Assembly (NCBI GenBank): GCA_000004985.1
Contig: GG738901.1
Strand: one strand, 5' to 3'
Length of the DNA stretch: 64,000 bases
Source: Naegleria gruberi
Lineage: Eukaryota
Shown here piece by piece: positions 10,921 to 50,051 of the stretch. Position numbers and translations under genes: made by a program. The notes beneath the pieces were generated by a model. The model was given only the letters and a program-made list of their open reading frames with translations. It made no database searches and was not told where the DNA came from. Position 1 is the first letter of the stretch. The number at the start of each line of letters is the position of its first letter.

Positions 10921-12211
10921 ATGGGTCTTAGACACGCCGTTCCAACCAAGGATACTCACTATGATGAATCCGAAGATATCTACTGTGTTTGTGTAGGTAT
11001 GCAAGGAAGCAGACCAGAAATGGAAGATGCTCACTGCTTGAGACTTGATATTCAAAACGATTTGAAGACACTCAAACAAAAGCCACACCAATACAAATCA
11101 TTGAACTTCTTTGGTGTATTTGACGGTCACGCTGGAGCTGAAGCCTCCAAGTTCTGTGCTGATAATATTCTTAGTGTTGTTGATGAACATTTGGAAAAGT
11201 CATCAAACTTGGAACTCTCAGACGAATTGATTACTGCTGCCTACTTGGCCCTTGATGAAAAGTTAAAAACTTATATGGAAAAGGTTCAAGGAATTAGCCC
11301 ATTCAATGGAAGTGGTTCAACTGGTATAACTTGTTTTGTCAAGGTTGCCGATTGTGATGTTGAAGCAATTTGTGCCAACGTTGGTGACTCTCGTTGTATC
11401 ATGTACCACAATGGAAAGACTATTGAAATGTCTTTCGATCAAAAGCCAATGAACGAAAGTAAGTTTAAAATTCTCACAATAATACTAAATAATAATAGTT
11501 GAAAAGAAGAGAATTGAAGCTGCTGATTGTACTGTCACTATGAATCGTGTTAATGGTAATCTTGCTGTTGCACGTGCTTTTGGTGATTTCCGTTATAAGG
11601 GTAATGAAAAGAAGAAGGCTGAAGATCAAGCTGTTTGTTGTGTTCCAGAAATTATCAGACAAAAGATGGACGGATTCACTAAAGGAAATAAGACTTCTCC
11701 AAGTTTCTTGATCTTGGCTTGTGATGGTTTGTGGGATAAATTCACAAATGAAGAAGCTGCTTTATATGTCAAACAACAATTGGAAAAGTATGATATTTTC
11801 AATGAAACTGAAATTTCTAGTGATTTGATGCAACCAATTAAGATTACCTGGTTGAACAAGAAGGTTGACGAATGGGATGCTGCTGATGTTGAAGGATGGA
11901 TTGAAAGTTTAGGTGTACCATATAACAATTATTTCTTAAGCAAGTTCAGAAATGGTACTGACCTTAAGCAAATCATGTTACAAGAAGATAAGTTCAATCG
12001 TTTGAAGGAAACTTTAAGACATGTTTCAAACTTTGTAGATGAATTCAGAAAGAAGTTCATGGAAAGAAATGAAATACAAGAAAAGCCAAAGACAGTGCCA
12101 AAGACAACTCGTGAAAAGTTGATCCATTTGACTGAACGTATGGTTGACTATGCAGTTTTTGAAAAGAGAAGTGATGACAACGTTTCCGTGGCCATTATTT
12201 TGTTCAAGTAA
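10921..12211 (+). CDS. Protein phosphatase 2C (PPM family) with about 100-aa SAM-like insertion; 2 exons join(10921..11458,11499..12211)
   Basis: Motifs MEDAH, FGVFDGHAG, GSTG, ANVGDSR, then the 40-nt intron GTAAGT...AATAG (11459..11498). Exon 2 restores ..QKPMNEIEKKRIEAA..RVNGNLAVARAFGD, ..ACDGLWD and terminal DNVSVAIILF. Phase 1/2 consistent. Insert WDAADVEGWIESLGVPYNNYFLSKFRNGTDLKQIMLQEDKF fits the SAM consensus. Confidence 0.85.
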
Positions 12212-14029: not shown

Positions 14030-15208
14030 ATGAAAAGAAAAATCGATCAACTTTTAAGCGTATTCTCAAAAAAGAAGAAAAAGGAAGAAAAATCATCGGA
14101 CGAACAAGCAAATTCATCAACAGGAAGCAATGAATTAAGATTTGAAGCCAATAATTACGAGAGTTGTATCGGAACACTTTGCGATACGAAAATTGTTTTG
14201 AATATCATGAAGTTTTTGGAGGTGAATGAAATTTTGTTTAATATTTGTTGTACTTCTCAGAGTAAGGATAATAGTAGAGAGGAATATAATTTGGATATTA
14301 AACCATTATATTTGGTTTGCAAATTTTGGTTCAAAATTATTCAATCGGAGGAATTTTCAAGAAATTACTTGTTAATTTATCATAATTTGGTGAATCATCG
14401 AAGAATTAAATTGTTTAATATGAGTGAGATGGATCTTACATTGGAAAAGATTGAGAATGTTTATAAACAAGCTCGATTGACTCTGATTCAAGACGGAGAC
14501 GAACCAATTTCACAAGATTTCTATCAAAGATTAATGATGCTGAGAGGAAGATTGATTCTTCACAATTCGAATGAATATTTGGAATATTTAACAAGAAAGG
14601 TTGCTGATATTACTAGGAGAAACAAGATTACTGCCAAGAAGAATGTTAAAGATTGGACAGAACCTTTCGATGATTTGAACGAATTTATAGAAATGATTTC
14701 ACAAAATTCACATAATAATCATGCAAGAATGAGTTTTGCAAGTAATCTCTACACTCAATTTCTCAATTTAGGATATGCAGGAGATTGTGAAAATCCAATT
14801 GAAGATCCAGAAGTGCAACAAATATTCAAACATTTAAGAAAGTGGAAACTCTCATGTTTGATAACACAGTCATCAAGGGAAATTTTGGAAATGAGATTTT
14901 CAAATTCCTTGTTTTGTACCTTTGAAAATGATAATTTGAGAGAATATGTTTTATTCAGAGATGATGGAGAGCCTTTAAAGTTGACCTCTAACAATGAAGG
15001 AATTATGATTAATGAAGTTTTCCTATTGAAAGTTGTGGAGGATAGAAAGGAAGGAGAGGACATGTTCTATCTCAACAAGTCATTCCCATACAATGATTTT
15101 CTAGGCTACACTCCAAACCAAGACGAAAAGGAATTCATTTTGAGCTTTTTCACATTCTTTGCCACAAATGGCCTTGTTTCTAATGGTGATGAAGATGAAA
15201 GTGATTAA
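14030..15208 (+). CDS. Hypothetical protein with N-terminal F-box-like motif (392 aa)
   Basis: ATG at 14030. KIVLNIMKFLEVNEILFNICCTSQ...LYLVCKFWFKIIQSEEFSRNY resembles the F-box consensus (..vCK.W..l...). Remainder unrecognised. Confidence 0.5.
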   Translation: MKRKIDQLLSVFSKKKKKEEKSSDEQANSSTGSNELRFEANNYESCIGTLCDTKIVLNIMKFLEVNEILFNICCTSQSKDNSREEYNLDIKPLYLVCKFWFKIIQSEEFSRNYLLIYHNLVNHRRIKLFNMSEMDLTLEKIENVYKQARLTLIQDGDEPISQDFYQRLMMLRGRLILHNSNEYLEYLTRKVADITRRNKITAKKNVKDWTEPFDDLNEFIEMISQNSHNNHARMSFASNLYTQFLNLGYAGDCENPIEDPEVQQIFKHLRKWKLSCLITQSSREILEMRFSNSLFCTFENDNLREYVLFRDDGEPLKLTSNNEGIMINEVFLLKVVEDRKEGEDMFYLNKSFPYNDFLGYTPNQDEKEFILSFFTFFATNGLVSNGDEDESD

Positions 15209-15279: not shown

Positions 15280-16614
15280 TTATTTTAACAAGGAAGAGTC
15301 ATACTGATCTCTAGTTTCTAAAATCTTGTACTTATTTTCTAGAGGACATTCGCCTCCACTTACAGTATCCAAAGAGAATCGATGGATGTAACCATCAAAG
15401 CTTACTACTACAAGTGCATCATTATTTGGAGTAATTCCACAAATATTTCTTGTTTCGTTTTCTGGTAATTTTACAGAAGCATGAGCAAAGTTACGGACAC
15501 TATCCCACATGTTGTGAAGAGTGTCACTAATTGATCCAACATTTTGTGTTCTCTTCTTTCTGAATAATAAATTAAATATTTAAATATATTATCATGCAAA
15601 ACTTACTCGTCCTTTTCTTGATTTTGATTCAATTTAAAAACGTGAACGGTTCCCTTGTCACTTGAAACACAAACCATTGAAGAATCTGAAGAAAATGAAA
15701 TACTATAAATACGAGCTGCTGTTGAACCTCTTCTCAAGGTATGCAATAGTTCACATCCTGGAATTGAGAAAATTCTAATCACAGTACCCTTTCCTGATGC
15801 TGTTGCAAGCATGGTACCATCTTGATTGAATTGTATTATTGATACGTCACTCTTATGGGCTTTGATAAAGTTGACTTGTTTAGGGTTGATGGCATCGTAG
15901 AGAATAACATCTCCGGACTCTGTTGGTGATGGATATGCCATATAACTAACGTCATTCTTTCCTCCACTGACTCCTGTTGGTGTAGATGAAGGTATGCTAG
16001 AAAGTACACACAATCCTAAATTGTTTTTTGTTTCAATTGTCCTGAGAATTTTCATAGATGAAATATCAAAGATATGAATCTTATCTTGAAGTACAACTAC
16101 AAGTCTTCTCTTTGATACTTTAACATTTAAAATTGTACTAGTAAAGTTTAGTTCACAAATTGCCTTGTTCTCACTCGAGTTGAAAAGTTGAAGTCTTCTA
16201 GGACTTAAACTTGCTTGATGTCCGGCACCAACAAGAGCTAATAAACTAGAGCTATATAACATTTGTACAAGACTCATTCCTCCAGCTACATGAATAGTAA
16301 ATTAATAATTAATATATTAGAATATTGGAATGATGATGTGATATATATCATAGTCCATTATTATCATCGTCATCACGATGAGTATGCAAATAATAATAAT
16401 AATACCATCAAATATTAATAATAATAATATGATTAATTAATATCAAAGGAATAATAAAACACGTACGTTGGGAATAGCATTTCTTCAACGGATCCAATGT
16501 AAAGATTTTATATGAACAATCGGTACCAACACTCACACAACTGCAATCTTGATTAAAAGCAGCAAACAAAATCTTCTCCGATCCTCCAGAAATATGATCT
16601 GTTGATGTACTCAT
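15280..16614 (-). CDS. WIPI/Atg18-family WD40 beta-propeller (PROPPIN); 3 exons join(16614..16467,16285..15607,15559..15280)
   Basis: Strong similarity to WIPI1/2 throughout (ILFAAFNQDCSCVSVGTDCSYKIFTL; LATASGKGTVIRIFSIP; L/FRRG motif as HTLRRGSTAARIYSISFS; TVHVFKL; C-terminal VVVSFDGYIHRFSLDTVSGGEC). Introns are GTACGT..TAG (181 nt, AT-rich with AAT runs) and GTAAGT..CAG (47 nt). Phases are consistent. ORF-track start 16626 is TTG; first ATG is 16614. Confidence 0.85.
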
Positions 16615-17290
16615 ATTTTCGATCAAAATTTAAATTATATATATAAATGAATACTTCTATTAATTACTCTATCAAGCTGTACAAATTCTCCAACAAAAAA
16701 GAAGCACCTCTTAGAGTTGTGTTTTTTAAAATTGTTCAAAGATTGGAACGTTCAAAGTAGAAGCGAAAACCAAGCTTGTGCAAGACTTTGAAATTTTTTA
16801 AAGATTTTGTGAGGAAATGTGATGATTTTGGACGACAAGCGAAATAAAAAGAACAAGAGTTAGTGTGTTGACTGGAAACGTGAGGAAGCCGAAATTGTGT
16901 TAAGGTTCATGAGTCTTAATATTGCTCAATAATTGGTCAGCTTGATGATGATTTGAAATAATAATTTTAAAAAATTGAAATATTTATTATAATAATTGTA
17001 AATTGTGTTGATTATTATAAAGCTTATTAACCATTCGGAGATGAGAATGGAGAAATGAAGAAGATTAACACTTTCGGATGAAATAATTGTATCGTGATGG
17101 GTAAGAAAAGATTTTTTGGTAAGGCAAATAATTGTTTCTTTTCAAATATTGATTTTGTCGCATCATTAAAAACAAAAAGCCTTCTCATCATCAACTCATG
17201 ACAGTTGACCTTTTCTAAATCTTTGGATATTCCTCTACCCTAACATTATCTTTTTTGCTTTTATCAATACTACTTCGGAGGAGAGAGAAG

Positions 17291-20200
17291 ATGAATTTTC
17301 ATATCGTTCTCTTACTCTTGTTGGTCATCATTAATTTGATGATATTTTCATCATCGGCTCTTGCAACGCTTTCCCTTGGACCAGAAGAAGCAAATGAAAA
17401 AGCAACAAGAACATCATTCATTCCAAATAATAATAATAATAATAACAACTTTGCTAGAGAACAACAGCTGAAACAACGTAGAAGGTTTCTTATTAACAAT
17501 GATCCAATTTATGGGAAATTAAATTCATATTTCCATGAGGAGGAAACAAGAGCCTTGGCGACTACTAGATATTCAACAACAACAACTTCAGTGAATGGAG
17601 AGTTCTTTTCGAATATTAGAGAAGAGCAAGAACAGTCGTCTGGTGTTCTCTCATCATCAGCAACACGGAATGTTCATAAAGAAAATAATGTAAATAATCA
17701 AACAAGAGGTTATGATAGAAGATTCGCTAGGGAACAATTGATGGTCGAAGAAGTATCTGCTACTGTATCATTATATGATTCGGCTGCTGTGACTGCTAAA
17801 GCAAGCATTCCTACAGTTTATCTATTCGAAAGTTTGGATGAGACAAGTGAAAATAATACATGCACAAGTGTGAATTCTCCTTGTAAGAATTGGACCATGG
17901 CTGTGAATAAGGTATTCTCTTTGTGTGAAGCCTCTGTTAGCAAATTGCCCTCTAAAACTGTTAACAGTTGTGAGGCAAAAATTGAATTATTAAGTGGAGT
18001 GAATAGTTGTGAAGGAGTTATTCCACAACTTTTATTATATCAAATCAAAATTTCAATTTATAGTAGTACAGCTCAATATAAGATGATATGTGGAGGAAAT
18101 ACCTTGTCACTTTTTGGAAATTTATTGACTGGTGTTTCAGATGCCTCAAATGTTTCACTCTCATTCAATAATATTGGCTTGACAAATGTGGTTTTTATAT
18201 TTTCTTCATTTGGAGAAGTTTCTTTCAATGGAACTAAACTAGATGGTGTGTTTTTCAATACCACTATCATTTCGTAAGTTTTCTTTCAGTATATATGAAT
18301 TGCAACTTATTTCTTGATAATTTAAATAACCTTAGAAGGTTCACCCTCAGCAAATCTTACGCTTCAGATTTGTACTTGGCTCAATTTTTTACCAAATTCT
18401 CACCAATTTCAACAGATTTTCTAACACTACAACAATCAATTTTGGAATATTGCTATTTTTCTGTAACATCAAGGGCAATAGATATAAAATCAAATACCAT
18501 GACCAATATTCGGATGACTTTTGATGCTCTTAGTAGAGTAGTAATAAGAGATAGCTCATTTTCTGATAGTACAGTACTCATTTCATCGAGTGATTTGTTG
18601 ATTGGTACAGGTTTTGCAGAATTTTCATTCTATATCGTAAATATTAGCTTTTCGAGATCGAGCTTAATTGTCACCTATTATAGAAATGGAAGAGCTCTTG
18701 TCTCTTCAAAACTTTATGTGATTGGATGCAATTTTTCTGGAAAAGCGCCATATTATCAAGTATCAGTAGTTGACTTTACAACAATAACTATTGATAATTG
18801 TATATTTAATGGACTCAATACCTATTCAGAATATAGTGCCCTCTCAATCAAGTCATACTATTCTAAAACTGAGGCAGAAATAACCAGTACAACTTTTAGC
18901 AATTATTATTCAAAAGCCTCAGGTGCAGCTCTTAATATTTATGGTGTTGAAATTGGATACATAGCCGATTGTATATTCAAGAATAACACAGCCCTCGATA
19001 ATGGTAAGTATGAAATTGTAATTAATAATATTAATTGTGCTTTTAATATAGGCGGAGCACTAACAATTGACAGAGTTGGATTAGCAACTGTTCAATACTG
19101 TAAATTTGTGGAAAACAAGTTTGAGAGTAAGAGAGAAAGTCAATTCTTTTCATATGGTGGAGGTGCATTATATGTTTACAAGTCATTTATTGAATTAACC
19201 AAGAATTTATTCACTAAAAATTCAGCTAATGGACTAGGTGGTGCTATCATTGTAAATACAGCCTGTAGTGTCAAGACATCAAATGATGTGTTTGATGATA
19301 ATTATTCACTCTATGGAGGAGCTATTGCTTACACAGATTATCAATTGAACGATTGTAGTAATGTAGTTTTCTTTACTTATAATTCTACTTTCATTAATAA
19401 TAAGGCAAAGTATTTTGGAGGATTCTTCTTTGGGAGAAAGTTACCAGTCATGTACTTTGATACTTTTACCAGCTTTAGACTCAATTCAGCACAATTGAGC
19501 GGAGGAGGAATTTATTATTTGGAAAAACCTGCTGCTAAGAAGGTTATTAATGGAGATCCTGAAAAGCTTGGTTTTGGTAATACAGGCATGTACACTAGCT
19601 CAAATATTGAATCATTCCCAACTCGAATGGAGGTATACTCCAAGAGTAGCATGGAATCTCAGAGTGGCGTTCTAACTAATATGCACTTGTTGCTATTGGA
19701 TGAAAACAACCAAACAACTCCATACTTCCCTGGAATGATGGACTTGGAGTTACAAGCTGATGGACTATCTTTTATTGTGACAAAGTTTACTTTTTCCAAC
19801 ACTAGTAGAACTCTCAAGTTGGACTATACTTTTTATTCCAAAACCGCTGAATTTCCATTCCAAAGCAATCTACTATTAATTTTGAGATTGAAAGAATTTG
19901 ATATTGCTCAATATTTTGAGTTCACTGCGACAACATGTAATATTGGTTATTATGTCATTAGAGATGAGGACAATGAAACATTGTACAAGTGTAGCCTTAC
20001 TCTTACGATCACCCTGTCAGCAACTATTGCTGGAATCTTATTGTTATTTATTGGATTTTTAGTAGGATTCTTCTTTTTAAGAATGATTAGAAGAATTACT
20101 ACAATAGTAATGGATTACAAGAAGAAGGAGCTAGCTGAAAAGGAGTTGACTGAAAGATTGATGAGCTATCAAGTCTTATTCGAACATGGAGACGTAGAAT

Positions 20201-21346
20201 TGGATGGCTATAAGCAGTGGATGATTCCAGTGAAAGATTTGGAGATTATTTCCAAGATTGGAGAAGGAGCTTACGGAACAGTTTACAAGGCAGTATGTTA
20301 TTTTTTATTCTTTCAATGATTATTTAATATTATTTATAATAGTTGTGGAAGACCAATGTAGAAGTGGCCATAAAATCCATCAAAGTTGATGAAGATTCAA
20401 TCTCTACTTTTGAACATGAAGCATCTTTATTGAGTAGTTGTAGACACTTGAATATTGTTACATTTTATGGATGTACAATAACTGGAGAAACTAATTATCT
20501 GGTTGAGGAATATATGAGTGGAGGTGGATTAGACAAGATGCTATATCGTGTTGGTAAAGGGCTAATTGCAATGAGTCTCAAACAAAAACTAAGAATTTTG
20601 ATTGATGTGTCTTGTGGAATGAGCTATCTCAATGAACTCAAACCTCCAATTATTCACAGGTACGTTCAACATTTCAATATTTTAATTTAACAAATTCTAA
20701 TCAGAGATTTGAAACCTGAGAATATCCTTCTTACAAGGGACATGGTAGCTAAGGTTTCTGATTTTGGCTTATCTACCATTTCAAATCCTCAGAGAACAAT
20801 GACATGCCAAATTGGCAGTTTATTCTATATGGCTCCAGGTAAGTTTATTCTTTGGATTATTCATCATTACTGAACTCAAAACCAGAACTTTTCAACAGCA
20901 ATTATTACAATGAGAAGTGTGATGTCTACTCCTTCTCAATTGTCATGTGGGAATTATTCTTTGGAACTCGTTATTCATCCTTTGGAGGTGATGCCAATGA
21001 TCGATTCAAATTTTTACTCACAAGAGAACAAATTTTGGAACTTTCCACACTCGCAACCAGTTCAATTGCCTTTGTGTTGAAGAAGGTTGCTGAGGGAACA
21101 AGACTTCCACTCCCAAACAGTACATCTAGTCACCTCAAATGGATTAGAGCTTTCATGCCTGAACATTCCAGTAATGATGAACATTGTAAAGTTATTGTAA
21201 AGGTGGTAGAGAAGTATTTTACTCTGATGGTAGAATGTTGGGATAACGATCACAGCAAGCGTCCTGGATTCAGAGATATTATGTATAGATTGAAGGAAAT
21301 GGTGGATTTGCTTTATTTTGATGAGTGTACAGTGAGAACTTTGTAA
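17291..21346 (+). CDS. Receptor-like TKL-type protein kinase with beta-helix-repeat ectodomain; 5 exons join(17291..18273,18336..20292,20343..20659,20705..20838,20886..21346)
   Basis: Signal peptide MNFHIVLLLLLVIINLMIFSSSALA. About 900-aa ectodomain with recurrent GG[AG][LI]/N-x-[FA]-x-N turns (GGALTIDRV, GGGALYVYKS, GLGGAIIVNTA, YGGAIAYTDY, SGGGIYYL). TM ITLSATIAGILLLFIGFLVGFFFL. Kinase motifs GEGAYGTVYKA, VAIK, HRDLKPENILL, DFGLS, MAPE, DVYSFSIVMWE. Introns are GTAAGT..TAG (62 nt), GTATGT..TAG (50), GTACGT..CAG (45), GTAAGT..CAG (47). All phases are consistent with the six-frame ORFs 17255..18277, 18295..20319, 20343..20690, 20852..21346. Confidence 0.8.
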
Positions 21347-21591
21347 ATTTTGATCATCATCATTAGCCATTGTTGTGGATTATTATACACTGTGAAATCC
21401 AGTTTATCGTGTTATCTCTTGGTTGCTGTTTAGTGATTGGGTTGCTTTCTGTACATTATTCGTTTTCCAAATATGGAAATCAGATAACAGTAACATAGAT
21501 TGTGGTCGACTGGACGCTCGCATTCTTTTGCTTCAATACTCCTCAAAACGCACCGATTATCGTTAACATCACCTCAAAAAAAGTTCGAATA

Positions 21592-22749
21592 ATGAGTGCA
21601 CCATCAACTACCAATAATTTCCTTGCAAATGTTTTGCAAACGCTTTCGAATAACTTTTTTGCAGACCTCAATAATACCAGCATCAGCACTCCAACCCTGA
21701 ATATCCTTTCCAATGAAACTGTACCAAATACAAGTCCTCCAACACCAACTCTTCATCCTCTTTCATACCCTTCTCTGGTAGCAAGTTTCAATAATTTTGA
21801 TAATTCTTCCATGTCTATGCGATCAGAGAGAGGAAACATGACTATTCGAAGAATGGTGAGTCCTCCAACTACAGATCCAGCACAAAACAATACCATTACA
21901 CCTCCACCAACAGTTGCCATACCAATTGTTCCTCCAGTGTTGGCTGGAGGTGCTCATCCACCTCCTGCTCACTTGTTGGGTGGAGCAGCTGCTAATGCTC
22001 CATTCACACCAGATAGTTTGCCTTGCATTCAATTTACCACTAATCTTTCGAATAGTTATTCAACCATTGTATCGACTAGACATAGCCGAACAATTGAGAC
22101 TCACTCCTGTGGAGCTTCTACTCAACCAAACACCTCGGTTGAATACATTTTTTATACGAAACACACTCATCCTCAATACACTTATTTTGAGGTAAAGCTG
22201 GCAGATAAACTCTTTTCTAATGCGCAGTCATCTGCTCCTGAAGTAGCTCTTGGTTTTGCACCTTTTGGATACAAGGGAATGGTCGGTTGGATGAAAAACT
22301 CAATTGGTTTCCATGTTGATAATGGACGAGTTTATGACGAGAGAGATGCAACAAACGGTATTGCAGATCGTGTATATTTAGGAAGTGTCAGTAGAGGAGA
22401 TGTCATTGGATGTTTGCTCAATCACAAGAATGGAGAATTTTTGGTTGTAAAGAATGGTCAAGAATTGCACAATCTTTCACATGGAACTGTCTTTAAGCAT
22501 GACCACTTTAAACAATCTCATCAATTTTTGCCAACCATTTCATGTTCAGATATTCACTTGGAAATGGAGGTGAATTTGGGATTGGACATGGTACGAAAAC
22601 CATTCCTCTATCCAAGAGTTGTTCACTTTAGACAATTGGACAGATTATTGGCCATGGTCATTTCAGAAGATCAACAAGTAACTTGTTCGAGTTTTAATTT
22701 CACAGATTTGAAAATCACCACACAAACCAATATTGTGCAATTTGATTAA
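21592..22749 (+). CDS. SPRY (B30.2-like) domain protein with Pro/Ser/Thr-rich N-terminus (about 385 aa)
   Basis: ORF 21502.. starts at GTG; first ATG is 21592. SPRY hallmarks YFEVKL...GFAPFGYKGMVGW..NSIGFHVDNGRVY...GDVIGCLLNHKNGEFLVVKNG. Confidence 0.65.
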   Translation: MSAPSTTNNFLANVLQTLSNNFFADLNNTSISTPTLNILSNETVPNTSPPTPTLHPLSYPSLVASFNNFDNSSMSMRSERGNMTIRRMVSPPTTDPAQNNTITPPPTVAIPIVPPVLAGGAHPPPAHLLGGAAANAPFTPDSLPCIQFTTNLSNSYSTIVSTRHSRTIETHSCGASTQPNTSVEYIFYTKHTHPQYTYFEVKLADKLFSNAQSSAPEVALGFAPFGYKGMVGWMKNSIGFHVDNGRVYDERDATNGIADRVYLGSVSRGDVIGCLLNHKNGEFLVVKNGQELHNLSHGTVFKHDHFKQSHQFLPTISCSDIHLEMEVNLGLDMVRKPFLYPRVVHFRQLDRLLAMVISEDQQVTCSSFNFTDLKITTQTNIVQFD

Positions 22750-23146: not shown

Positions 23147-24157
23147 ATGAAACAACTTGTCTTGGCTATTTTCCTCTTGTTTTTCCTTGCTTTATTAACA
23201 ACAATGGAAGGAAAATCAATGAAAAACAACATGAATAATCGACCAGTGATTGGAATTTTAGCACAACCTACACTTACCGGAAAGATATCAATTTATGGAA
23301 AGTATTATATTGATGCAGCCTATGTAAAGTTTGTAGAGAGTTCGGGTGCTCGAGTTGTTCCTCTGAGGTTTGATTTACCTCGTGATGAGATGAGAAGTTA
23401 TTTTGATCAGTTGAATGGAATTTTGTTTGCTGGAGGTGGAGTTGATTTGGTGGAGAAGAATGGAGATTTGACTCCCTATATGAAATCACAACAAATGTTG
23501 GTAAATTGGGCTATTGAAGCCTATGAGAAGAATGGTGATTATATGCCAATGTGGGGAACTTGTTTGGGATTTCAGGGATTGGCTATTGCTTTGGCTAATG
23601 ATAGCTCTGTAATGCAAAGTGGATTTGATTCAGAGAATATGGCCATTCCATTGGATTTTACAATGCCAGAGTCAAAAATTATAGAATCAACAAGATTATT
23701 CAATCCTAAAGAGGTGGACTCTGTTCAAATGAGGGATATTGTCTATTTGTTAGGAAATAAGAATGTTACTTTCAATGCTCACCATGATGGTATTCCAATA
23801 GATAGATGGATCAGTAATTCAAATTTAAACAAACAAGTAAGACTCATATCAACAAATCTCGATAGAAATGGAAGGAAATATGCTAGTCTTTTGGAACATT
23901 CCAAATACCCAATTTATGGAAGTCAATTCCATCCTGAAAAGAGCATGTTTGAGTGGAATCCAAATGAAGTCATTAATCACTCTTTAGAAAGCGTTAAGGT
24001 CAATTCATATTTTGGAAAATTCTTTATTAATGAATGCAGAAAGAACTCTCACACCTTCAAATCTGAACAATTTTTAGAAAAGTCTCTCATTTACCAATTC
24101 ACCCCAGTTTACACTTATCCACTCGTAAATGATTTTGAGCAATGCTACTTTGTATAA
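23147..24157 (+). CDS. Gamma-glutamyl hydrolase (peptidase C26, class I glutamine amidotransferase-like), secreted (336 aa)
   Basis: Signal peptide MKQLVLAIFLLFFLALLTT. Near-colinear match to GGH (RPVIGILAQP, YIDAAYVKFVESSGARVVPL, NGILFAGGG, catalytic MWGTCLGFQGLAI, YPIYGSQFHPEK, ALIYQFTPVYT). Confidence 0.9.
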   Translation: MKQLVLAIFLLFFLALLTTMEGKSMKNNMNNRPVIGILAQPTLTGKISIYGKYYIDAAYVKFVESSGARVVPLRFDLPRDEMRSYFDQLNGILFAGGGVDLVEKNGDLTPYMKSQQMLVNWAIEAYEKNGDYMPMWGTCLGFQGLAIALANDSSVMQSGFDSENMAIPLDFTMPESKIIESTRLFNPKEVDSVQMRDIVYLLGNKNVTFNAHHDGIPIDRWISNSNLNKQVRLISTNLDRNGRKYASLLEHSKYPIYGSQFHPEKSMFEWNPNEVINHSLESVKVNSYFGKFFINECRKNSHTFKSEQFLEKSLIYQFTPVYTYPLVNDFEQCYFV

Positions 24158-24219: not shown

Positions 24220-25812
24220 TCAAAATTGGTTTAATATCTCAAAATCTATTTGAAGATTTGACGAGTTATTGTTAGTGGAATTCTCCCATTCTTTCATGAC
24301 CTCGTGTGGATTGATAGGCCTTAAAGGCAAAAATTGATCATCGTCGTTTCTTTCATGATCATCATTCCCTGAAAGGAAGAAGTTATCCATGTCTGTAATT
24401 AATGATTGATCTTGTTCTTTATCTTCTTCCTTATAAAAGAATGATAGAGGTGAAGATGGAGCATTGGATTGTGGGGGAGGATTATTATTTACATTATCAA
24501 ATGAAAGATCACCGACGTCTTCATTGAGAAGAGAATCAAGCATGTCATCAAAATCAGATTGGCCATTCATATTATTATTATTGGCAGATTGTTGAGGAGT
24601 ATTGTTAGGATAGGAGGTTGACATTTGTTGAAATACTCCTGGCTCTGAATTCTGGGCAAAGATACTATTAAAGAGAGCTTGTTGATGAAATTCTTGAAGT
24701 TCTGGAGTACTTTGGGCCATAATGCCATTTTGATGGGCTGTTCTATTGTACAATAATTGTTGATTGGCATCAGGGTTCAATACTGTATGTCCACTCGTAT
24801 TCATATTAACAGGTTGATTACTGTACAATGCATTTCCAATACCCATCAAGAATTTCTGATTCTCCACACTCATATCTGTCTCACTATATGAAAGACTGAA
24901 CTTTTTGTTACCGACTTCTTGAAGTTGCTGATTGGGTTGAATATTGATATTATTCTGACTCAAAGCTGCAGCCAATGAATGACGATCCAAATTGAGCATG
25001 GAATTCTTCTTTGAAAAGCTGGGAGATTTTTCAATACCTCTTCTAGGAGACATATTTGGTGGAATTCCATTTGGACCCATTCCATTCATCATTGATTGAG
25101 CATGTAGTGAATTGGAATCACTCAAATCTAAATTATTCTTTGAACAACCAGCTTTTGGTTTCTTCTTCATTTCCAGTTCAAAGTAGTTTGCCTTGAAATT
25201 TCCCAAACCAGAGTGTTTCTTCATTCTCAAACTTGTGGTATTGTGAAGAGTGGAGGCTGAATTGTGCTTTTTCAGAGAGGGTGGACTCTTCAAGTGAGAT
25301 AAAAGAGGAGAATTAAGATTCGAATAATTATTAGGTGGAGTAGAGTAATGACTATTCATCTTGCTATTCCTTGTTGGAGTAGATGGTGCATTTAAATCAA
25401 AAGTTGGAATAGTACCTCTATTGAGAACGTCAGCTGTTGTCTCATTAATGAACATTAATGTGTTTGATGGTGGAGCTTGATTGACTTGTGAATGATGAGA
25501 ACCACTGCCACTGCCACTACTATGACCTACACTACTATGATTACTAGAATGTCCGTTAGAAGATTGAGAAATTGGAGAAACAACCTGTTGCTGCTGTTGT
25601 TGCTGTTGCTGTTGCTGTTGTTGATATAAATTATTAATGTCTTGTTGATTGAGTAAGGAATTATAGAGTTGAGCTTGAGACGAAAGTTGTTGTTGTTGTT
25701 GTTGCATTAGCATATTTTGAAATCCTTGAGGATTAGTTTGAGGAGAAAGTGCTGCACCTCGGCTTGATGCATTTAAAACTTGCAAAATGTTTGTCGAGTT
25801 TGATGCCATCAT
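24220..25812 (-). CDS. Gln/Asn-rich low-complexity protein with poly-Q13 tract (about 530 aa from first ATG)
   Basis: The ORF continues up to 26286 without an ATG; I treat that as 5' UTR read-through. Tandem ATG ATG at 25812..25807 (MMASNSTNILQVLN). Poly-Q, S/N/P-rich. Acidic conserved-looking C-terminus (DMDNFFLSGNDDHERNDDDQFLPLRPINPHEVMKEWEN). Confidence 0.5.
   Translation of the reverse strand: MMASNSTNILQVLNASSRGAALSPQTNPQGFQNMLMQQQQQQLSSQAQLYNSLLNQQDINNLYQQQQQQQQQQQQQVVSPISQSSNGHSSNHSSVGHSSGSGSGSHHSQVNQAPPSNTLMFINETTADVLNRGTIPTFDLNAPSTPTRNSKMNSHYSTPPNNYSNLNSPLLSHLKSPPSLKKHNSASTLHNTTSLRMKKHSGLGNFKANYFELEMKKKPKAGCSKNNLDLSDSNSLHAQSMMNGMGPNGIPPNMSPRRGIEKSPSFSKKNSMLNLDRHSLAAALSQNNINIQPNQQLQEVGNKKFSLSYSETDMSVENQKFLMGIGNALYSNQPVNMNTSGHTVLNPDANQQLLYNRTAHQNGIMAQSTPELQEFHQQALFNSIFAQNSEPGVFQQMSTSYPNNTPQQSANNNNMNGQSDFDDMLDSLLNEDVGDLSFDNVNNNPPPQSNAPSSPLSFFYKEEDKEQDQSLITDMDNFFLSGNDDHERNDDDQFLPLRPINPHEVMKEWENSTNNNSSNLQIDFEILNQF
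25575..25613 (-). repeat. (CAR)13 trinucleotide repeat encoding poly-Gln within the CDS
   Basis: Plus strand ctgttgctgctgttgttgctgttgctgttgctgttgttg = 13 consecutive CAA/CAG codons on the minus strand. Confidence 0.8.
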
Positions 25813-26535
25813 GGATGTTTGGCAGATATTTTTACAGTTAGGAAAATTAATTGTTGCGTGATGGAGGTTCGAATATTTGGAGGACCTCAGTAGGGAAAGT
25901 AAACTAGGAAACCGTAGACTAATTAATCTATTTTTAGAGATTCGAATTGTTGAAAAAGTTCCTATTCGAAAGTGATTGTTTTTCGAGTTCAATATTATGC
26001 TCTCGTAAATAATTGATAAAGAGAAAATTGTTTGCCTTTGTTTTTCAAATAACAGATGTAGAGACCTTTTTTTTAACTCACCAATTCTATCTCTGTTACA
26101 AAATCGTGGTTGGTGAGAGGACAAAACGAGAGGTAAAATTTTGGTGTTGACTGAAGTTGAGATATCAAACATTTTGCCTACCAACAAACAATTCGGAAGA
26201 GGACTCGATATTTGATATTGTGCATAGGTAAAGATTGTTTGAGGTGTTGTGATGGACTGGAAAAAGGCGCCAAAAAAAAACCTCAACTAGAGTCAAGAGT
26301 ATTAGCTGAGAGATGATAATTTAAATTTGGGGGCCTTGTTGAGGGTGAAGAGATTAATATAGGAGAGATTGCATATTTTGAGTAATATAATAATTAAATG
26401 TTAATTATTATGATATTCTTATTTCCAATATGAAAGAAAAGTTCATTAAAGAATTAAATAATCAAATGATATGGAATTCATTGGTTTATTCATTCTCATT
26501 GGAATAAATTCCTTTCTCAGAAGACGAAGAAAAAA

Positions 26536-28623
26536 ATGGCAGATTTCGAACTGGAGATTGGTGAACCTGTCCATGACGTGGCTGAGCTCATTGCATGGAT
26601 AGATGCGTGTGATCTCATCAATGATGATGAAGAGGAATCAACAAATGCTCCGAACGATCATTTACAGCACTCATCAAGTGTTCAAAATTATGATTTTCTC
26701 TTGATTGGCTCGAAAGCATTGAAGAGTCATTGGCAAGAATTAAATAATTCAACAATGATGGTGATGAAGGAATCTTTGGCCAAACATTCTGGATTTGGAA
26801 AGAAAATTATCAAGAATCATGTTGATCACCGTTTTGAGAAGGACTCGGATTGGGATTTAGTTTGTCTGAATAAGAAAGCACTGATGGAATTCTTGAAGAA
26901 TGAAGAGATTGAGGAGATTTGTGTTAATTATATTGTACAATTGGAGGATTTTGAAGTGAGTGAGAATGATTATTGTGAATGGATGAACATTGGTGGTCAA
27001 CCAACGAGATGGAAAGAGTTTTCGCTTCGTTTAGAAATGAAGAATGGATTAATTATTGAGATTGAATACTGCACTCATCAATATCACCTGTTAAAGTATT
27101 TGAATTCAAAGAAGATTAATAATGTGAAAGTTCCATTCATGAATGAGTTCAATTGTGCTCTTGCTCCTCTCGAATTGTTGGAAATTATCAAAAGATCTCA
27201 TTTATTCTTTAATATTCTTAACGATTCCTGGTTGAAGCACTTTCTTGATATAGAAATGATTCATTTGATTCAAAAAGTATCGGAAACTCACGATGTCTTA
27301 TACTTGGGCACAGCTTTTGAAGATAACGAGCTCATTTGGTTAGTTTATTACGACAGGCTTACAAAACGAATTGTAAAAATGGCTCAAGATGAACAGGATT
27401 CGTATGATAATTATATTGACATATACTGTTTCAATATAAGGGAGGAAGAGATCCGTCATGTTGCTCGTGATGGTTATTCAGAAAGTTTATTTTCTGTTTT
27501 TGGAGTGAATGAAATTCAATTAAATCCATCATTTTTGGGAGACAGCTCCCAATCTATTGAGTACATGTCTCAAGCTATAGCTGGAAACATTCTCAAAACA
27601 AGTATATTCCGTGTGGTCAACTCTGAAGAATTGGAAAAGTTGATCCTCAAATCAATGCAAAAAGCACTTGATTATAATTACAAGACCTATCTGTTTATGA
27701 TTATTATTGAAGTGTATTGGAAGATTTCTGAGAGAATATTTGACATGCTCCATCAACCCGAAAGACTTGAAGCATTATTTAACACTAAGACTGAAATGTT
27801 AGAATTTAAATTCAAGAATTATCCAATTGATTTGGAGAAGGATGATGTGAAGGATATTTCACATCTGAATGGTCTCTATATTTGCAGTCATTACTTGCCA
27901 ATTCATTTAATTATGAATATCATATCATATTCCCATTCAGCTAGTGATATTATCCATCTTACTCAATTGGACAAGAGTTGGAATCAAATTTTTGAAATTC
28001 AGGATGTCTGGAAGTATTTGTATTTCAGCAGATATCCTACTCCATCCCAATACTATTCTGTGAAATCTACTTTCCAAGCAAAGAGTTGGAAATTGCAAGT
28101 CCTAGCCAGATCCAAATTGAATAGAATTCCACTACTGTCCAGTCAAGGATGTAAGGGACTTGCCGAAGTATTCAAGAGCAAGTTTATTGGAAAATCAGAA
28201 GCTTTCAAACAATTCATTTCTGATTTTTATGCAAACACTTACATTGTGAGCAAGAAGGAAGTTAATAATTCTTCTGATGAATCCAAAACCTTAAAAGCAA
28301 CTTTAATGATTTTCTGGCCAAGACAAGCTCCACTCCAGGTTGACTTGGAAGTTTATCTTGATTATGCTGAGTACAGATCTGGAGATAGTAAAGGAGGTTT
28401 CGGTAGCAGAGAGAAGGTCACAGTTAGATACTTGGGAGGAAAGAGCTCATATTATTCAAATCAACCTTTAATTCTCAGGTCAATCACCAACCCTGAAGAC
28501 TTTATTGGAAGGTACTATCTTTCAATATTGAGTCAACAACAATATGCTTCTCTATTTTCAACTTTGGCAGTTTTAGGATTTGGAAAGAATTGGACAAGTG
28601 AAGTGTTGGGTTATTCGTGGTAG
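26536..28623 (+). CDS. Hypothetical 695-aa protein with C-terminal F-box-like motif
   Basis: ATG at 26536, acidic N-terminus. LPIHLIMNIISYSHSASDIIHLTQLDKSWNQIFEIQDVWKY fits the F-box pattern (LP..l...I......dl..l..v.k.W..l.....W). Confidence 0.5.
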   Translation: MADFELEIGEPVHDVAELIAWIDACDLINDDEEESTNAPNDHLQHSSSVQNYDFLLIGSKALKSHWQELNNSTMMVMKESLAKHSGFGKKIIKNHVDHRFEKDSDWDLVCLNKKALMEFLKNEEIEEICVNYIVQLEDFEVSENDYCEWMNIGGQPTRWKEFSLRLEMKNGLIIEIEYCTHQYHLLKYLNSKKINNVKVPFMNEFNCALAPLELLEIIKRSHLFFNILNDSWLKHFLDIEMIHLIQKVSETHDVLYLGTAFEDNELIWLVYYDRLTKRIVKMAQDEQDSYDNYIDIYCFNIREEEIRHVARDGYSESLFSVFGVNEIQLNPSFLGDSSQSIEYMSQAIAGNILKTSIFRVVNSEELEKLILKSMQKALDYNYKTYLFMIIIEVYWKISERIFDMLHQPERLEALFNTKTEMLEFKFKNYPIDLEKDDVKDISHLNGLYICSHYLPIHLIMNIISYSHSASDIIHLTQLDKSWNQIFEIQDVWKYLYFSRYPTPSQYYSVKSTFQAKSWKLQVLARSKLNRIPLLSSQGCKGLAEVFKSKFIGKSEAFKQFISDFYANTYIVSKKEVNNSSDESKTLKATLMIFWPRQAPLQVDLEVYLDYAEYRSGDSKGGFGSREKVTVRYLGGKSSYYSNQPLILRSITNPEDFIGRYYLSILSQQQYASLFSTLAVLGFGKNWTSEVLGYSW

Positions 28624-36351: not shown

Positions 36352-37443
36352 TTATCCAAAATACACAAAGAATCCGATATCCTTCTTTAGATATTCACTA
36401 TTGAAGAGTTGATCCTTTTTCTTTTGAAACAACTCGTAGAGTTTTGTACATGTCATTCCTAATCTTGCTAATGTGAATGGATCTCCAATTATTTCCATAA
36501 TTGAAATCCAATAATCAGTGTGTAGCTCCTCATTCCAAATTCTTTGAATGGGACCTTTATCCATTACTGGTCTATCAATTAAAGAAAATACAAACTTTGG
36601 ATTATTGTAATATTGAAGCATGTCATCAAACGTGTCAATATCCATTTTAGAAGATATAAATTCCTCAATGGTCATCTTTGCTTTTTTCTCTTCTTGTTTG
36701 GACTTTTTCTTTTCAGGAGTATTCAAATATTCATCGTATGCATTCTGATAATTTTTAACCAATATAGACCTTGGAATTTGAGTTGAATGTTGAAAATGTT
36801 CACTCAACTCTCTCAATCGATTCGGATGAATGAAAGTAATACTAACATCGCCATCCATTCTAGAATTATGTTGAGTAGCCACCGACAATAAACTAAAATA
36901 AGGTTCCTCTCTAAATAATTTCTTCATTCTTTCAATTCCCTCACTATTCAAATCTTCGTACTTTCCATTCGAATCCTTCTTCAAATATTTACTATTCAGC
37001 TCCTCTTGCATATCACTCTTAAATATGGTATGACCACAAATCAAACCCTCAAACTCTTCTTCATTCGACCAACACTCATCCAAATCCAACTCATTCGCAA
37101 ATTCAACAAACAAATCAAAAGCATTAAAATTAAGAGTTGCAACATGAAAACAAGGCTTTAAATTATCGAGCAAATGTTTCCAATCCGTAATCTTACCCTC
37201 CTCTATAAAATCCAAAGCCTTGTATTTTCTCTTACTCGCATCATACGGAATGTACTTCTTTTTAATTCTCTTATTGATTTGATCTTGTTCTTCTTCTTGA
37301 TCGGAGAAAATTTGCTCCAAAACTTGCTCTAGTTTTTTATCATTGGTCTGATCTTCTGATTGTGAAGAAGCTTGTTGAATTTTTCTGATCCGATCTGCCA
37401 AATGCTTCAAATTAAAAAGCGTAAATTCTGCATAGAGTCCCAT
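36352..37443 (-). CDS. Hypothetical protein (about 363 aa)
   Basis: ORF 36352..37446 starts at GTG; ATG at 37443 (MGLYAEF..). Charged, K/E-rich. Possible F-box-like stretch near the C-terminus (FTLARLGMTCTKLYELF). No confident domain. Confidence 0.4.
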   Translation of the reverse strand: MGLYAEFTLFNLKHLADRIRKIQQASSQSEDQTNDKKLEQVLEQIFSDQEEEQDQINKRIKKKYIPYDASKRKYKALDFIEEGKITDWKHLLDNLKPCFHVATLNFNAFDLFVEFANELDLDECWSNEEEFEGLICGHTIFKSDMQEELNSKYLKKDSNGKYEDLNSEGIERMKKLFREEPYFSLLSVATQHNSRMDGDVSITFIHPNRLRELSEHFQHSTQIPRSILVKNYQNAYDEYLNTPEKKKSKQEEKKAKMTIEEFISSKMDIDTFDDMLQYYNNPKFVFSLIDRPVMDKGPIQRIWNEELHTDYWISIMEIIGDPFTLARLGMTCTKLYELFQKKKDQLFNSEYLKKDIGFFVYFG

Positions 37444-38406
37444 CACGAATTGTTTTTAATATTTTTTTTCACTAAATTTTTTTTTAAAATTTAATTTTTA
37501 AAATGTAACGGTTTTTTTGGATGTGAACAGAAATGGAATTTGAGGAAGGACCTCAATGTTTGGTGAAAATTCCTTACTTGGTGGTGATAATATTACTGTA
37601 ATGATGAGGAATAGTAAATATTTTTCATTGTAAAGTGATGAACTTGAATATTCAAATGATGAATATGGAAAGAGTGACACGTATTCTATCACATCTACAA
37701 ATATCGAAAGCATTTGCATTTTTCAATCTTGAACGATTGATGTCTTGTTGTACTTGATCACGATACTTGTCATGCTTCTGGAGAAATATATTGACTTTCG
37801 AATAGAATGCATGCTGGTGCGGAATTTAATATTTGAACGAAATTAATTATTTGAAATTCTGTGCTATCAAAATTCATTTGTGAGAGTCCAGTAAGTGTTA
37901 ACTATTTCACCTTGCTCTTACCATTTAATTCTTGAGGTTTCGAATAAGTGAGCCCTTCAAATTATTCGAATTGTCTCTTTTGGCAATCTATTCCCAAACC
38001 ATCACAAACGAATATCGAAATATAAATTTGATGGCACAAGACAAACGGACTGTCAAAGCAAGTGAAAAAAGAAACAAGTTTATTGTTGGTATTGGTATTA
38101 CATCACCTACTTTCGAATAACGTTAAACGAAACAACAACAAGAAATTACTTGAATAACATTGTCTCTCGCTAGTCCTTTAAATATTGTGTTAGAAGACTA
38201 AATGTTTAAACTTTCGTCTAGTTTCCCAAAAGAATCGTTTTGTAGTAACCAAGTTATTAGAAAACAACAACAATAACAAAATTGTGGACGGTGAATTATT
38301 ATTCAAATTAGTTAGATAACGAATACCATCGATATCCAAGAATCAAGTTCTCTTGTTACTCCTAATTTCACCAAAATTAATTATTCGAAACCTTTAATTT
38401 ATCATC

Positions 38407-39660
38407 ATGGTTCACGTGAACGATTTTTTACTAACAAACATCATCCCTTCAGCTCTAACAAACCTATTCGAAACTTCTTCTCTCACACCGAATGTAACTT
38501 TTATGCAAACTTGTGTGAGATTTGATCCAGCAGGTTTCGAATATGTTGGCTGGGTATGGGATATTTTCGGCGAATGTGTCCACGAACCAAGAGAAATAGC
38601 TTCCTTTGCAGTTGGCATGATTTCCATTGGATTTTGGATGTGTGCTCTCCTGCCACAAGTCATTGCGAATTTCAAAAATAGAGATGCCTCCTCCCTGTCA
38701 ACTGGCTACTTGATACAAATCACTTTGGGTGATGCCTGTTCCATGACAGCTGGTATCATGAGTGGTCAATTGATTACTCAAATTTTATTGAGTGCTTACT
38801 TTGTATTAATGGACGTTGTAATGATTGCTCAATATTTTTGTTTTGTGGTCATTCCAAAAATTTATAGAAAAGTCAAATCGAGGAAAATTCAACCTGAAAA
38901 AAATCAAGAAATTGCAAATTCTCAAAGTGAATTGGTGAATAAGGAGAAGGTTGAGGTAAAATGTGAGAATTCAAAGCAGCAGGAAACAATTTTGAAGAGT
39001 TCGATTTGGATTTCAATTTTGGCAATTTTAGTATTGATTACATTCTTTACAACTTCAACAATGCTTTCGAATAATGTTGAGAATGCACAGAAAATGAATC
39101 AAAAAACAATGAGAAAACTATTGCATGCCATTAATGAAGGACAAGAATACTCAACCACTCAACAAGATCACAACAGTTTCACCTTCCCTCCAAACACTCC
39201 AGTTTCCATTGTTGGTTTCTCATTGGGTTGTTTCTGTGCCATTCTCTACATGGGCAGTAGATTACCTCAAATCTTTTTGAATTTCAGAAGAAAAACATGT
39301 GATGGTCTCTCACCTATTTACTTTGGAATTGGTATTTTAGGAAATGTTTGTTATTGTGTTTCGATTTGGTTGTACTCTTCAGATTCGGCTTATTTAATGA
39401 CACGTATTCCTTGGTTAGTGGAATCGACTGTAAATATATTTTTGGATATTTTCATCATGTGGCAATTTGTGTATTACAATTACTTGTATAAGGGAAAGAA
39501 ACCAGAAAGTAAGGAAGTAAAGAATAAGAAAGTGGAAGAATTGAAAGTTGTTTCTGCCATGAGTACAGTTTCAGATACTTCTCCAAAGGTGAATGCTCCA
39601 ACAAATGATGATTGGTCATCGAGTTCAACTTCTGCGAGTCCAAAGGAACAAATTGTGTAA
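38407..39660 (+). CDS. PQ-loop repeat membrane transporter (PQLC2/Ypq-like lysosomal/vacuolar amino-acid transporter family)
   Basis: Two PQ-loop modules (FAVGMISIGFWMCALLPQVIANFKNRDASSLSTGYL and GFSLGCFCAILYMGSRLPQIFLNFRRKTCDGLSPIYF). Seven predicted TM helices. Hydrophilic K/E-rich central loop and S-rich tail. Confidence 0.85.
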   Translation: MVHVNDFLLTNIIPSALTNLFETSSLTPNVTFMQTCVRFDPAGFEYVGWVWDIFGECVHEPREIASFAVGMISIGFWMCALLPQVIANFKNRDASSLSTGYLIQITLGDACSMTAGIMSGQLITQILLSAYFVLMDVVMIAQYFCFVVIPKIYRKVKSRKIQPEKNQEIANSQSELVNKEKVEVKCENSKQQETILKSSIWISILAILVLITFFTTSTMLSNNVENAQKMNQKTMRKLLHAINEGQEYSTTQQDHNSFTFPPNTPVSIVGFSLGCFCAILYMGSRLPQIFLNFRRKTCDGLSPIYFGIGILGNVCYCVSIWLYSSDSAYLMTRIPWLVESTVNIFLDIFIMWQFVYYNYLYKGKKPESKEVKNKKVEELKVVSAMSTVSDTSPKVNAPTNDDWSSSSTSASPKEQIV

Positions 39661-44180: not shown

Positions 44181-44444
44181 TTTGCTTTGGATAGATAAGC
44201 ACAATTTTGCAAATACAACAGTGCCTGGTAGAACCAATTTGAGTGGATGTAATTAGCAGGAAGATAGGTAAAATCAAAAAAGTAATGCTTTCCTCAGTAA
44301 TTTCATTTTTTTGCCAAATCTGATTTGGCGAATTGAAATGGACTAAAATCTTGTTGTAACAGTAAACCATGTAGGAAAGCATTGCTTTATTAGATTTTAT
44401 TTATCTTTTTAGAAAATTAAGTGACACTCCAACCAAACAAAAAA

Positions 44445-49905: not shown

Positions 49906-50051
49906 AATTCCTTAAAAGACATGTAAATGTTGAAGGCTTTTAATGCTCTTTAAAATTGAAAGCCTTGAAGGAAATATTTGAGAGGAACTCCATAAATGGA
50001 AGATCGATTATTTTCGTAATTTTGCAAAAATGGAAATACTTTAAAAATTTA

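Follow-up and report, generated by a model that had tools for sequence, protein, structure and literature searches.

A gene of Naegleria gruberi is likely to encode a lineage-restricted type I receptor serine/threonine (Ser/Thr) kinase that couples a TKL-group-like kinase domain to a beta-helix of the polymorphic membrane protein (Pmp) type, and that would bind surfaces and signal through clustering. It lies on the plus strand of a 64,000-nucleotide (nt) stretch of contig GG738901.1 (GenBank assembly GCA_000004985.1), hereafter the window, and forms a single intact gene of six exons at positions 17291-21346 encoding 1267 amino acids (aa). An initial annotation of the window had proposed a receptor-like kinase here and placed it in an amoebozoan and fungal context; the host is a heterolobosean. 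Receptor kinases with a single membrane pass have been studied extensively in animals and plants but are barely characterised in free-living excavate protists, and how amoebae such as Naegleria recognise prey, substrate and one another is largely unknown. If our reading is correct, sensing through the adhesin repeat of Chlamydia and Trichomonas would be a concrete and testable candidate for contact sensing in Naegleria.

Gene structure

Canonical GT-AG splicing joins the gene into one uninterrupted coding sequence (CDS), from an ATG at 17291 to a TAA at 21344-21346, and both ends agree exactly with the initial annotation. Before splicing, the gene appears as a chain of long plus-strand open reading frames (ORFs) in shifting frames, each ending at or beside a GT(A/T)(A/C)GT donor (Table 1). 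The window is AT-rich (~34% GC) and gene-dense, and its introns are short. GC content is 0.12-0.30 in the five introns of this gene and 0.33-0.38 in its exons, and comparable short GTAAGT or GTATGT introns are found in other genes of the window, for example at 11459 and 32064. At the first junction, the donor overlaps the stop codon of the first ORF and the acceptor puts the next ORF back in frame.

The initial annotation had likewise spliced the locus into one CDS but from five exons, overlooking an in-frame intron that is also missing from the public gene model. We read positions 19004-19051 as an intron because of their splice signals, length and low GC content, and because removing them restores the register and profile score of a protein repeat. 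At 48 nt, the segment is within the local intron size range. Its excision converts FKNNTALDNGKYEIVINNINCAFNIGGAL to FKNNTALDNGGAL, which has the same FxxN-x5-GGA register as the later repeats, and once spliced this junction-spanning repeat is the top-scoring stretch for the Chlam_PMP family (PF02415). Against Chlam_PMP, the exon 2-3 region reaches 26.1 bits when left unspliced; after splicing, the score is 30.4 bits over the whole protein and 41.8 bits over a 347-aa fragment. Our AlphaFold2 model was built from the unspliced fragment and hence includes 16 residues translated from intron 2. The sole gap in its confident helix where the predicted local distance difference test (pLDDT) score falls below 50, model residues 226-235, is the translation of this intron. 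Positions 19004-19051 are thus probably a genuine intron, and the gene most likely has six exons.

Public annotation

The 674-aa ORF at 18295-20319 falls in a 90% protein cluster that includes XP_002671972.1 (EFC39228.1, D2VVF6) of N. gruberi NEG-M, a 1136-aa 'SPRY domain-containing protein' that begins at the same ATG. This public model excises an 'intron' of ~535 nt that corresponds to aa 198-355 of the six-exon model, retains the 48-nt intron 2, and skips the end of the transmembrane helix together with kinase exons 4 and 6. What it takes from the receptor gene is aa 1-197, aa 356-881 and exon 5, after which it continues into a neighbouring SPRY gene at 21502-22749 (SPRY, 1.2e-09). Compared with our gene model, XP_002671972.1 is a chimera with this downstream gene that leaves out most of the kinase and conceals the receptor-kinase architecture. 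Censuses of kinomes or receptors that rely on public annotation would miss the gene.

Predicted topology and kinase domain

Signal peptide and transmembrane helix were called heuristically, from Kyte-Doolittle hydropathy and the AxA rule. Just two segments of the protein, aa 1-30 and aa 864-899, have a Kyte-Doolittle hydropathy above 1.6 when averaged over 19 residues. The first is a signal-peptide-like N terminus, MNFHIVLLLLLVIINLMIFSSSALA followed by T, with an AxA-type site (ALA before T) and a hydropathy peak of 2.62. The second contains the predicted transmembrane helix and is directly followed by a basic stretch, RMIRR...KKK (RMIRRITT...DYKKKE), so the C terminus is predicted to be cytoplasmic. 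N-x-S/T sequons number 14 before the helix and one after it. The predicted topology is that of a type I receptor kinase with a signal peptide, a sequon-rich ectodomain, one transmembrane helix and a cytoplasmic kinase, the layout initially proposed. The ectodomain measures ~843 aa rather than the ~900 aa first estimated, and the kinase module ~375 aa.

Pfam identifies the kinase domain with strong support (PK_Tyr_Ser-Thr 7.6e-53, Pkinase 2.9e-47); the match spans profile positions 2-258 of 263. All of the motifs that the initial annotation had reported as intact could be located: the GxGxxG loop as GEGAYG at residue 954, VAIK at 972, HRDLKPEN at 1069, DFG at 1089 and APE at 1113. The catalytic set is complete, comprising the glycine loop, the VAIK lysine, the alphaC glutamate, HRD, the catalytic asparagine, DFG, APE and the subdomain XI arginine, and these motifs predict a catalytically competent domain. 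HRDLKPEN together with GSLFYMAPE identifies an RD-type kinase of the Ser/Thr type, and tyrosine-kinase signatures (HRDLAARN or HRDLRAAN; P(I/V)(K/R)W(T/M)APE) are absent from the kinase sequence.

The best PDB matches are CTR1 (5.6e-38), TAK1, ZAK/MLT, TNNI3K and BRAF, with EGFR and a Src/Abl ancestor interleaved among them. The best database relatives, 29-36% identical, carry the names TKL (Salpingoeca), TKL-DRK (Plasmopara) and plant receptor-like kinase (RLK). By these best matches, the domain appears to be a TKL-group-like Ser/Thr kinase, which agrees with the affinity suggested at the outset. Relative to CTR1, the C-lobe carries an insert of ~50 aa between subdomains IX/X and XI (aa ~1141-1225, window 20886-21283).

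A Pmp-type beta-helix in the ectodomain

Turns of the form GG(A/G)(I/L)..N..F.N had been described as populating the extracellular region. They are real and non-random, with five strict FxxN-x3-7-GG[AGF][ILVFY] pairs where 20,000 shuffles gave no more than one, but they are confined to aa 542-705. Within that interval, FxxN...GG[AGF]x pairs total six when a longer spacer is allowed, at a spacing of 27-35 aa. The protein exceeds the curated cut-offs of two repeat profiles, scoring 30.4 bits for Chlam_PMP (cut-off 20.6) and 24.7 bits for TIGR01376 (cut-off 15). Among the families initially put forward for the fold, Chlam_PMP was the one recovered; hidden Markov models (HMMs) for Beta_helix (PF13229), Pectate_lyase_3 and NosD gave no match at E<=1, the limit to which matches were reported.

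Searching 5.8e9 sequences with the low-complexity N terminus removed returned 40 ectodomain homologues, the best at 8.7e-14. Nearly all carry PF02415, and PF13229 is found in many of these homologues. The few with names are a Methanobrevibacter right-handed parallel beta-helix repeat protein, a predicted outer membrane repeat protein, a choice-of-anchor Q protein and a Physarum transcript with EGF_CA plus PMP. The best homologue sits in a prokaryotic gene neighbourhood, with two more PMP genes adjoining. By BLASTP, homology is confined to aa ~420-715 and occurs in multiple registers, as expected of repeats. Among PDB sequences, phmmer found nothing significant for the ectodomain. We make no claim of horizontal transfer of the ectodomain: its closest relatives come from prokaryotes, but so does the overwhelming majority of the database, and identity is below 35%.

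Run with homologues, AlphaFold2 predicts ~11-12 coils of three short strands each for aa ~420-715, at pLDDT 75-98. In the model, the repeats form parallel beta-helix coils, and these three-stranded right-handed coils can be superposed on solved members of the beta-helix/pectin-lyase fold. Foldseek returned the same fold class with weak statistics. The Pmp family has already been modelled as beta-helical (PMC10715098, PMC11166332). Chlam_PMP, TIGR01376, the 40 homologues and AlphaFold2 thus agree on a right-handed, Pmp-like beta-helix, as the initial annotation had proposed.

Judged by sequence homology, the recognisable Pmp beta-helix is limited to aa ~420-715, or roughly one third of the ectodomain. 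Neither the first ~390 aa nor the ~150 membrane-proximal aa have detectable relatives. Exon 1 (aa 1-327) found only itself in an exhaustive HMMER search of 1.84e9 representative proteins, and a word-indexed search with the whole ectodomain, poly-N and poly-T runs included, also returned only itself, probably swamped by low complexity. For aa 159-327, a single-sequence AlphaFold2 run had a pLDDT of 42. Within the N-terminal third (aa 25-327), residues 191-267 form a six-Cys segment, and there are runs of poly-N and poly-T.

Proposed function and alternatives

We propose that the beta-helix would serve as a binding module on the cell surface. The analogy to Pmp proteins of chlamydiae and trichomonads makes a partner on a surface, whether that of bacterial prey, substrate or another cell, more likely than a small soluble ligand. 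Clustering or dimerisation driven by the ligand would place RD-type kinase domains side by side, and trans-phosphorylation of their activation loops could then start a cytoplasmic phosphorylation cascade acting on, for example, adhesion, phagocytosis or motility. A contact or prey-surface receptor is favoured because Pmp helices are usually adhesins, as are the characterised Pmp-type proteins of Chlamydia (PMC10715098). The FxxN and GGA motifs play a structural role and point into the helix (PMC11166332), and are therefore uninformative on the ligand.

Several points weigh against this proposal. All splice junctions are predicted from sequence, and expression of the gene is presumed. The signal peptide and transmembrane calls use only hydropathy and the AxA rule. 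Placement in the TKL group reflects best matches and not a phylogeny, and the top relatives are just 29-36% identical. The fold is a prediction, and AlphaFold2 is reported to over-predict beta-solenoids for repetitive sequences (bioRxiv 10.1101/2024.10.30.621056); here, however, sequence homology points independently to the same fold. Two thirds of the ectodomain have no assignable fold. Finally, the ligand and the dimerisation step are argued from analogy.

The ectodomain had initially been suggested to sense glycans or cell walls. Here the beta-helix would bind a polysaccharide, such as a bacterial capsule, an exopolysaccharide or the Naegleria cyst wall, in the manner of plant wall-sensing RLKs. 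We consider this unlikely. The matches counted in its favour are just 8-14% identical and reflect what was crystallised, no carbohydrate-enzyme HMM matches the protein, and Naegleria trophozoites are, to our knowledge, without a cell wall. The family signal is that of Chlam_PMP, and the characterised members of this family are adhesins that bind proteins or cells (PMC10715098, PMC6701047). A glycan sensor would nonetheless be a subset of the surface-binding receptor that we favour, not its contradiction.

A bolder version of the surface-binding receptor, to which we assign a low probability, is that a TKL kinase gene of Naegleria captured a Pmp adhesin helix of prokaryotic origin and so founded a class of protist receptors, hitherto unrecognised, for contact or pattern recognition. 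Were this so, binding to prey surfaces (or to other cells or substrates) would be coupled directly to phosphorylation signalling in adhesion and phagocytosis, and the class may have escaped notice because the architecture is disrupted in gene models like XP_002671972.1. It is very unlikely that the ectodomain is instead a membrane-tethered carbohydrate-active enzyme (a lyase, hydrolase or epimerase) whose activity the kinase reports or regulates, because no carbohydrate-active enzyme family in Pfam or NCBIfam matches at E<=1. Its sequence relatives are repeat-only surface proteins, and an identity of ~10% was too low for catalytic residues to be mapped.

One gene and its second haplotype

The first ORF ends in a stop codon (18275-18277) that falls within the GTAAGT donor, with 17 nt between it and the ATG of the next ORF at 18295. 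In a two-gene interpretation, which we regard as highly improbable, the ORF at 17255-18277 would encode a separate small secreted protein and the receptor would begin at 18295. The link between the two ORFs is indeed a prediction from sequence, but a gap of 17 nt is far from the 245-665 nt that separate neighbouring genes, and the consensus donor over the stop is followed by a 62-nt AT-rich intron that restores the frame. A product starting at 18295 (MNCNLFLDNL...) would have no signal peptide for an N-glycosylation-rich domain of ~570 aa. Exon 1 has no homologues among the 1.84e9 representative proteins, and the single-sequence AlphaFold2 run does not show the helix continuing into it; the independent public model nevertheless also begins at 17291 and runs into the second ORF. 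Moreover, the stretch of exon 1 at 17882-18273 is free of in-frame stops, which all 20,000 of 20,000 composition-matched shuffles contained, and is therefore coding. The initial annotation would have been undone by evidence of separate 17255..18277 and 18295..20319 transcripts, or by a lack of beta-helix family support; we found family support and no such evidence.

A metagenome contig in ENA (ERZ929261, run ERR1078381, PRJEB11402; 5517 nt) corresponds to window 17030-22560 at 99.35% identity, and by this match is a second Naegleria strain or haplotype. Spliced at the same coordinates, it yields a CDS of 3795 nt that is open to the identical stop. Three indels separate the haplotypes in exon 1, each of 3 nt and all within aa 31-64, and two more, of 4 nt and 1 nt, lie upstream of the ATG. 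Exonic substitutions comprise nine synonymous and seven nonsynonymous changes, and one further change falls in intron 2. We estimate a dN/dS of roughly 0.25, assuming about three nonsynonymous sites per synonymous site and with the caution due to small numbers. Together, these comparisons suggest that the gene, exon 1 included, is real and constrained coding sequence.

Decay or disuse is the least credible account. A decaying or unexpressed lineage-specific fusion, juxtaposed by chance and without function, would fit the orphan, low-complexity N-terminal third and the lack of any orthologue or paralogue in word-indexed, homology and metagenome searches. It is hard to square with six exons that are all open, kinase motifs that are all intact, and a second haplotype that keeps the ORF, tolerates coding indels only in frame and shows an excess of synonymous changes per site.

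Neighbouring genes

No second kinase or PMP gene is present within the window. Its most conspicuous other feature is an uninterrupted 2095-aa ORF at 52458-58745 (minus strand) with eight Big_9 (3.5e-122), six Cadherin_4 (2e-87) and two Cadherin_5 stretches and a VWA domain. Its domain content resembles a giant adhesin of bacterial type, making it a possible candidate for lateral transfer. A 490-aa ORF at 2908-4380 (minus strand) contains a perforin-like MACPF domain that scores 28 bits (3e-06; cut-off 21.5). Other recognisable genes encode a PP2C phosphatase (10921-12211, plus strand, split by the short GTAAGT intron at 11459), a PROPPIN/WIPI protein (15603-16626, minus strand), a Peptidase_C26/GATase protein (23147-24157, plus strand), a PQ-loop protein (38407-39660, plus strand) and a carboxylesterase (49956-51716, plus strand). 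Eight long ORFs (364-1054 aa) matched no Pfam family at the thresholds used (Table 1). GC skew is unusually high, at 0.45, in the block 8001-9000.

Table 1 Features of the receptor-kinase gene, and long ORFs of the window without a Pfam family
Feature	Position	Strand	Details
Exon 1	17291..18273	+	aa 1-328, phase 2 end; from ATG and hydropathy; signal peptide (17291-17362, aa 1-24), low-complexity N/T-rich stretch, six-Cys segment (aa 191-267), beta-strand-rich repeats (aa ~270-327)
Intron 1	18274..18335	+	62 nt, GTAAGT...CTTAG; GC 0.226 vs 0.33 in flanking exons
Exon 2	18336..19003	+	aa 328-550; N-terminal part of beta-helix
Intron 2 (probable)	19004..19051	+	48 nt, in frame, GTAAGT...TATAG; GC 0.167
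Exon 3	19052..20292	+	aa 551-964; remaining Pmp repeats, membrane-proximal region, transmembrane helix, juxtamembrane region, kinase glycine loop
Intron 3	20293..20342	+	50 nt, GTATGT...AATAG; GC 0.12; joins YKA to LWK upstream of VAIK
Exon 4	20343..20659	+	VAIK to IIHR
Intron 4	20660..20704	+	45 nt, GTACGT...ATCAG; splicing recreates HRDLKPEN
Exon 5	20705..20838	+	DLKPEN, DFG, activation loop
Intron 5	20839..20885	+	47 nt, GTAAGT...ACCAG; splicing recreates MAPE
Exon 6	20886..21346	+	Kinase C-lobe and stop codon
Predicted Pmp-type right-handed parallel beta-helix core	18604..19545	+	aa ~418-715; spans intron 2
Canonical FxxN/GGA pairs	18976-19515	+	aa 542-705
Membrane-proximal ectodomain	19546..20001	+	about aa 716-867 (~150 aa); AlphaFold2 pLDDT 28-41; no family or homologue match
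Predicted transmembrane helix	20002..20076	+	aa ~868-892; hydropathy peak 2.66; AlphaFold2 helix, model residues 562-582
Protein kinase domain	20242..21283	+	aa 948-1247, split by introns 3-5; from Pfam, PDB alignment and motifs
ORF without Pfam family	9-2204		
ORF without Pfam family	7017-8921	-	
ORF without Pfam family	14030-15208		
ORF without Pfam family	24220-26286	-	
ORF without Pfam family	26536-28623		
ORF without Pfam family	36352-37446	-	
ORF without Pfam family	41383-44037		
ORF without Pfam family	44421-47585		

Comparison with known systems

Trichomonad Pmps such as T. vaginalis TvPmp combine FxxN/GGA repeats with a C-terminal transmembrane helix and have been implicated in adherence (PMC6701047; bioRxiv 10.1101/454884). 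The Naegleria protein shares their eukaryotic type I layout, in which FxxN/GGA(I,L,V) repeats are followed by one C-terminal transmembrane helix. The tail of the trichomonad proteins is short and bears endocytic NPx[YWF] motifs and a conserved ATPITK motif, whereas a motif scan found neither in the Naegleria protein, which carries the kinase module of ~375 aa instead. Trichomonad Pmps are also reported to have no detectable signal peptides, whereas one is predicted here.

With chlamydial Pmps, the protein has in common the PF02415/TIGR01376 repeats, in which alternating FxxN and GGA motifs form right-handed coils (PMC10715098, PMC11166332). It has neither the Pmp middle domain nor the autotransporter beta-barrel of that family (Pfam, E<=1), and differs further in its predicted alpha-helical anchor, its ~6 canonical repeats, its eukaryotic host and its spliceosomal introns. 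As far as these sequence features go, the repeat is shared and the family architecture is not. Archaeal and bacterial 'adhesin-like' surface proteins with PMP/Beta_helix repeats, for example from Methanobrevibacter, come closest to aa 420-715 (25-35% identity, best 8.7e-14). None of these relatives has a kinase domain, and their anchoring and context differ.

Among kinases, the closest solved structures belong to cytoplasmic TKL MAP3Ks (CTR1/Raf, TAK1 and ZAK/MLT; 5.6e-38 to 1e-30), which share HRDLKxxN and G(T/S)xx(W/Y)MAPE-type motifs with the Naegleria kinase. These enzymes are soluble, with neither an ectodomain nor a transmembrane helix, and the Naegleria kinase differs further in its C-lobe insert of ~50 aa. 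Plant RLK/Pelle and Entamoeba transmembrane kinases, by contrast, combine a signal peptide, a variable ectodomain, one transmembrane helix and an RD-type TKL-like kinase, and their known ectodomains are of the LRR, LysM, malectin, lectin, WAK/EGF and CXXC-rich types. Plant RLKs have the same layout as the Naegleria protein and are among its best kinase matches, at ~30-36% identity, which does not imply orthology. We do not claim RLK/Pelle (IRAK) membership, as RLKs appear alongside choanoflagellate and oomycete TKLs at 29-36% identity.

The literature we searched describes neither a receptor kinase with a Pmp or beta-helix ectodomain nor any receptor kinase of Naegleria. A search with aa 330-1267 gave kinase-only matches at 29-36% identity and no PMP-plus-kinase protein, Naegleria paralogue or orthologue, with the proviso that a word index may miss relatives below ~35%; a scan of JGI metagenomes with exon 3 gave no relative. 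The PMP-plus-kinase architecture may, tentatively, be unique. What we describe is a new type of ectodomain on the well-known modular theme of receptor kinases, in a gene that was already public and mis-modelled. If this reading holds, the modular receptor-kinase repertoire would gain a new ectodomain class.

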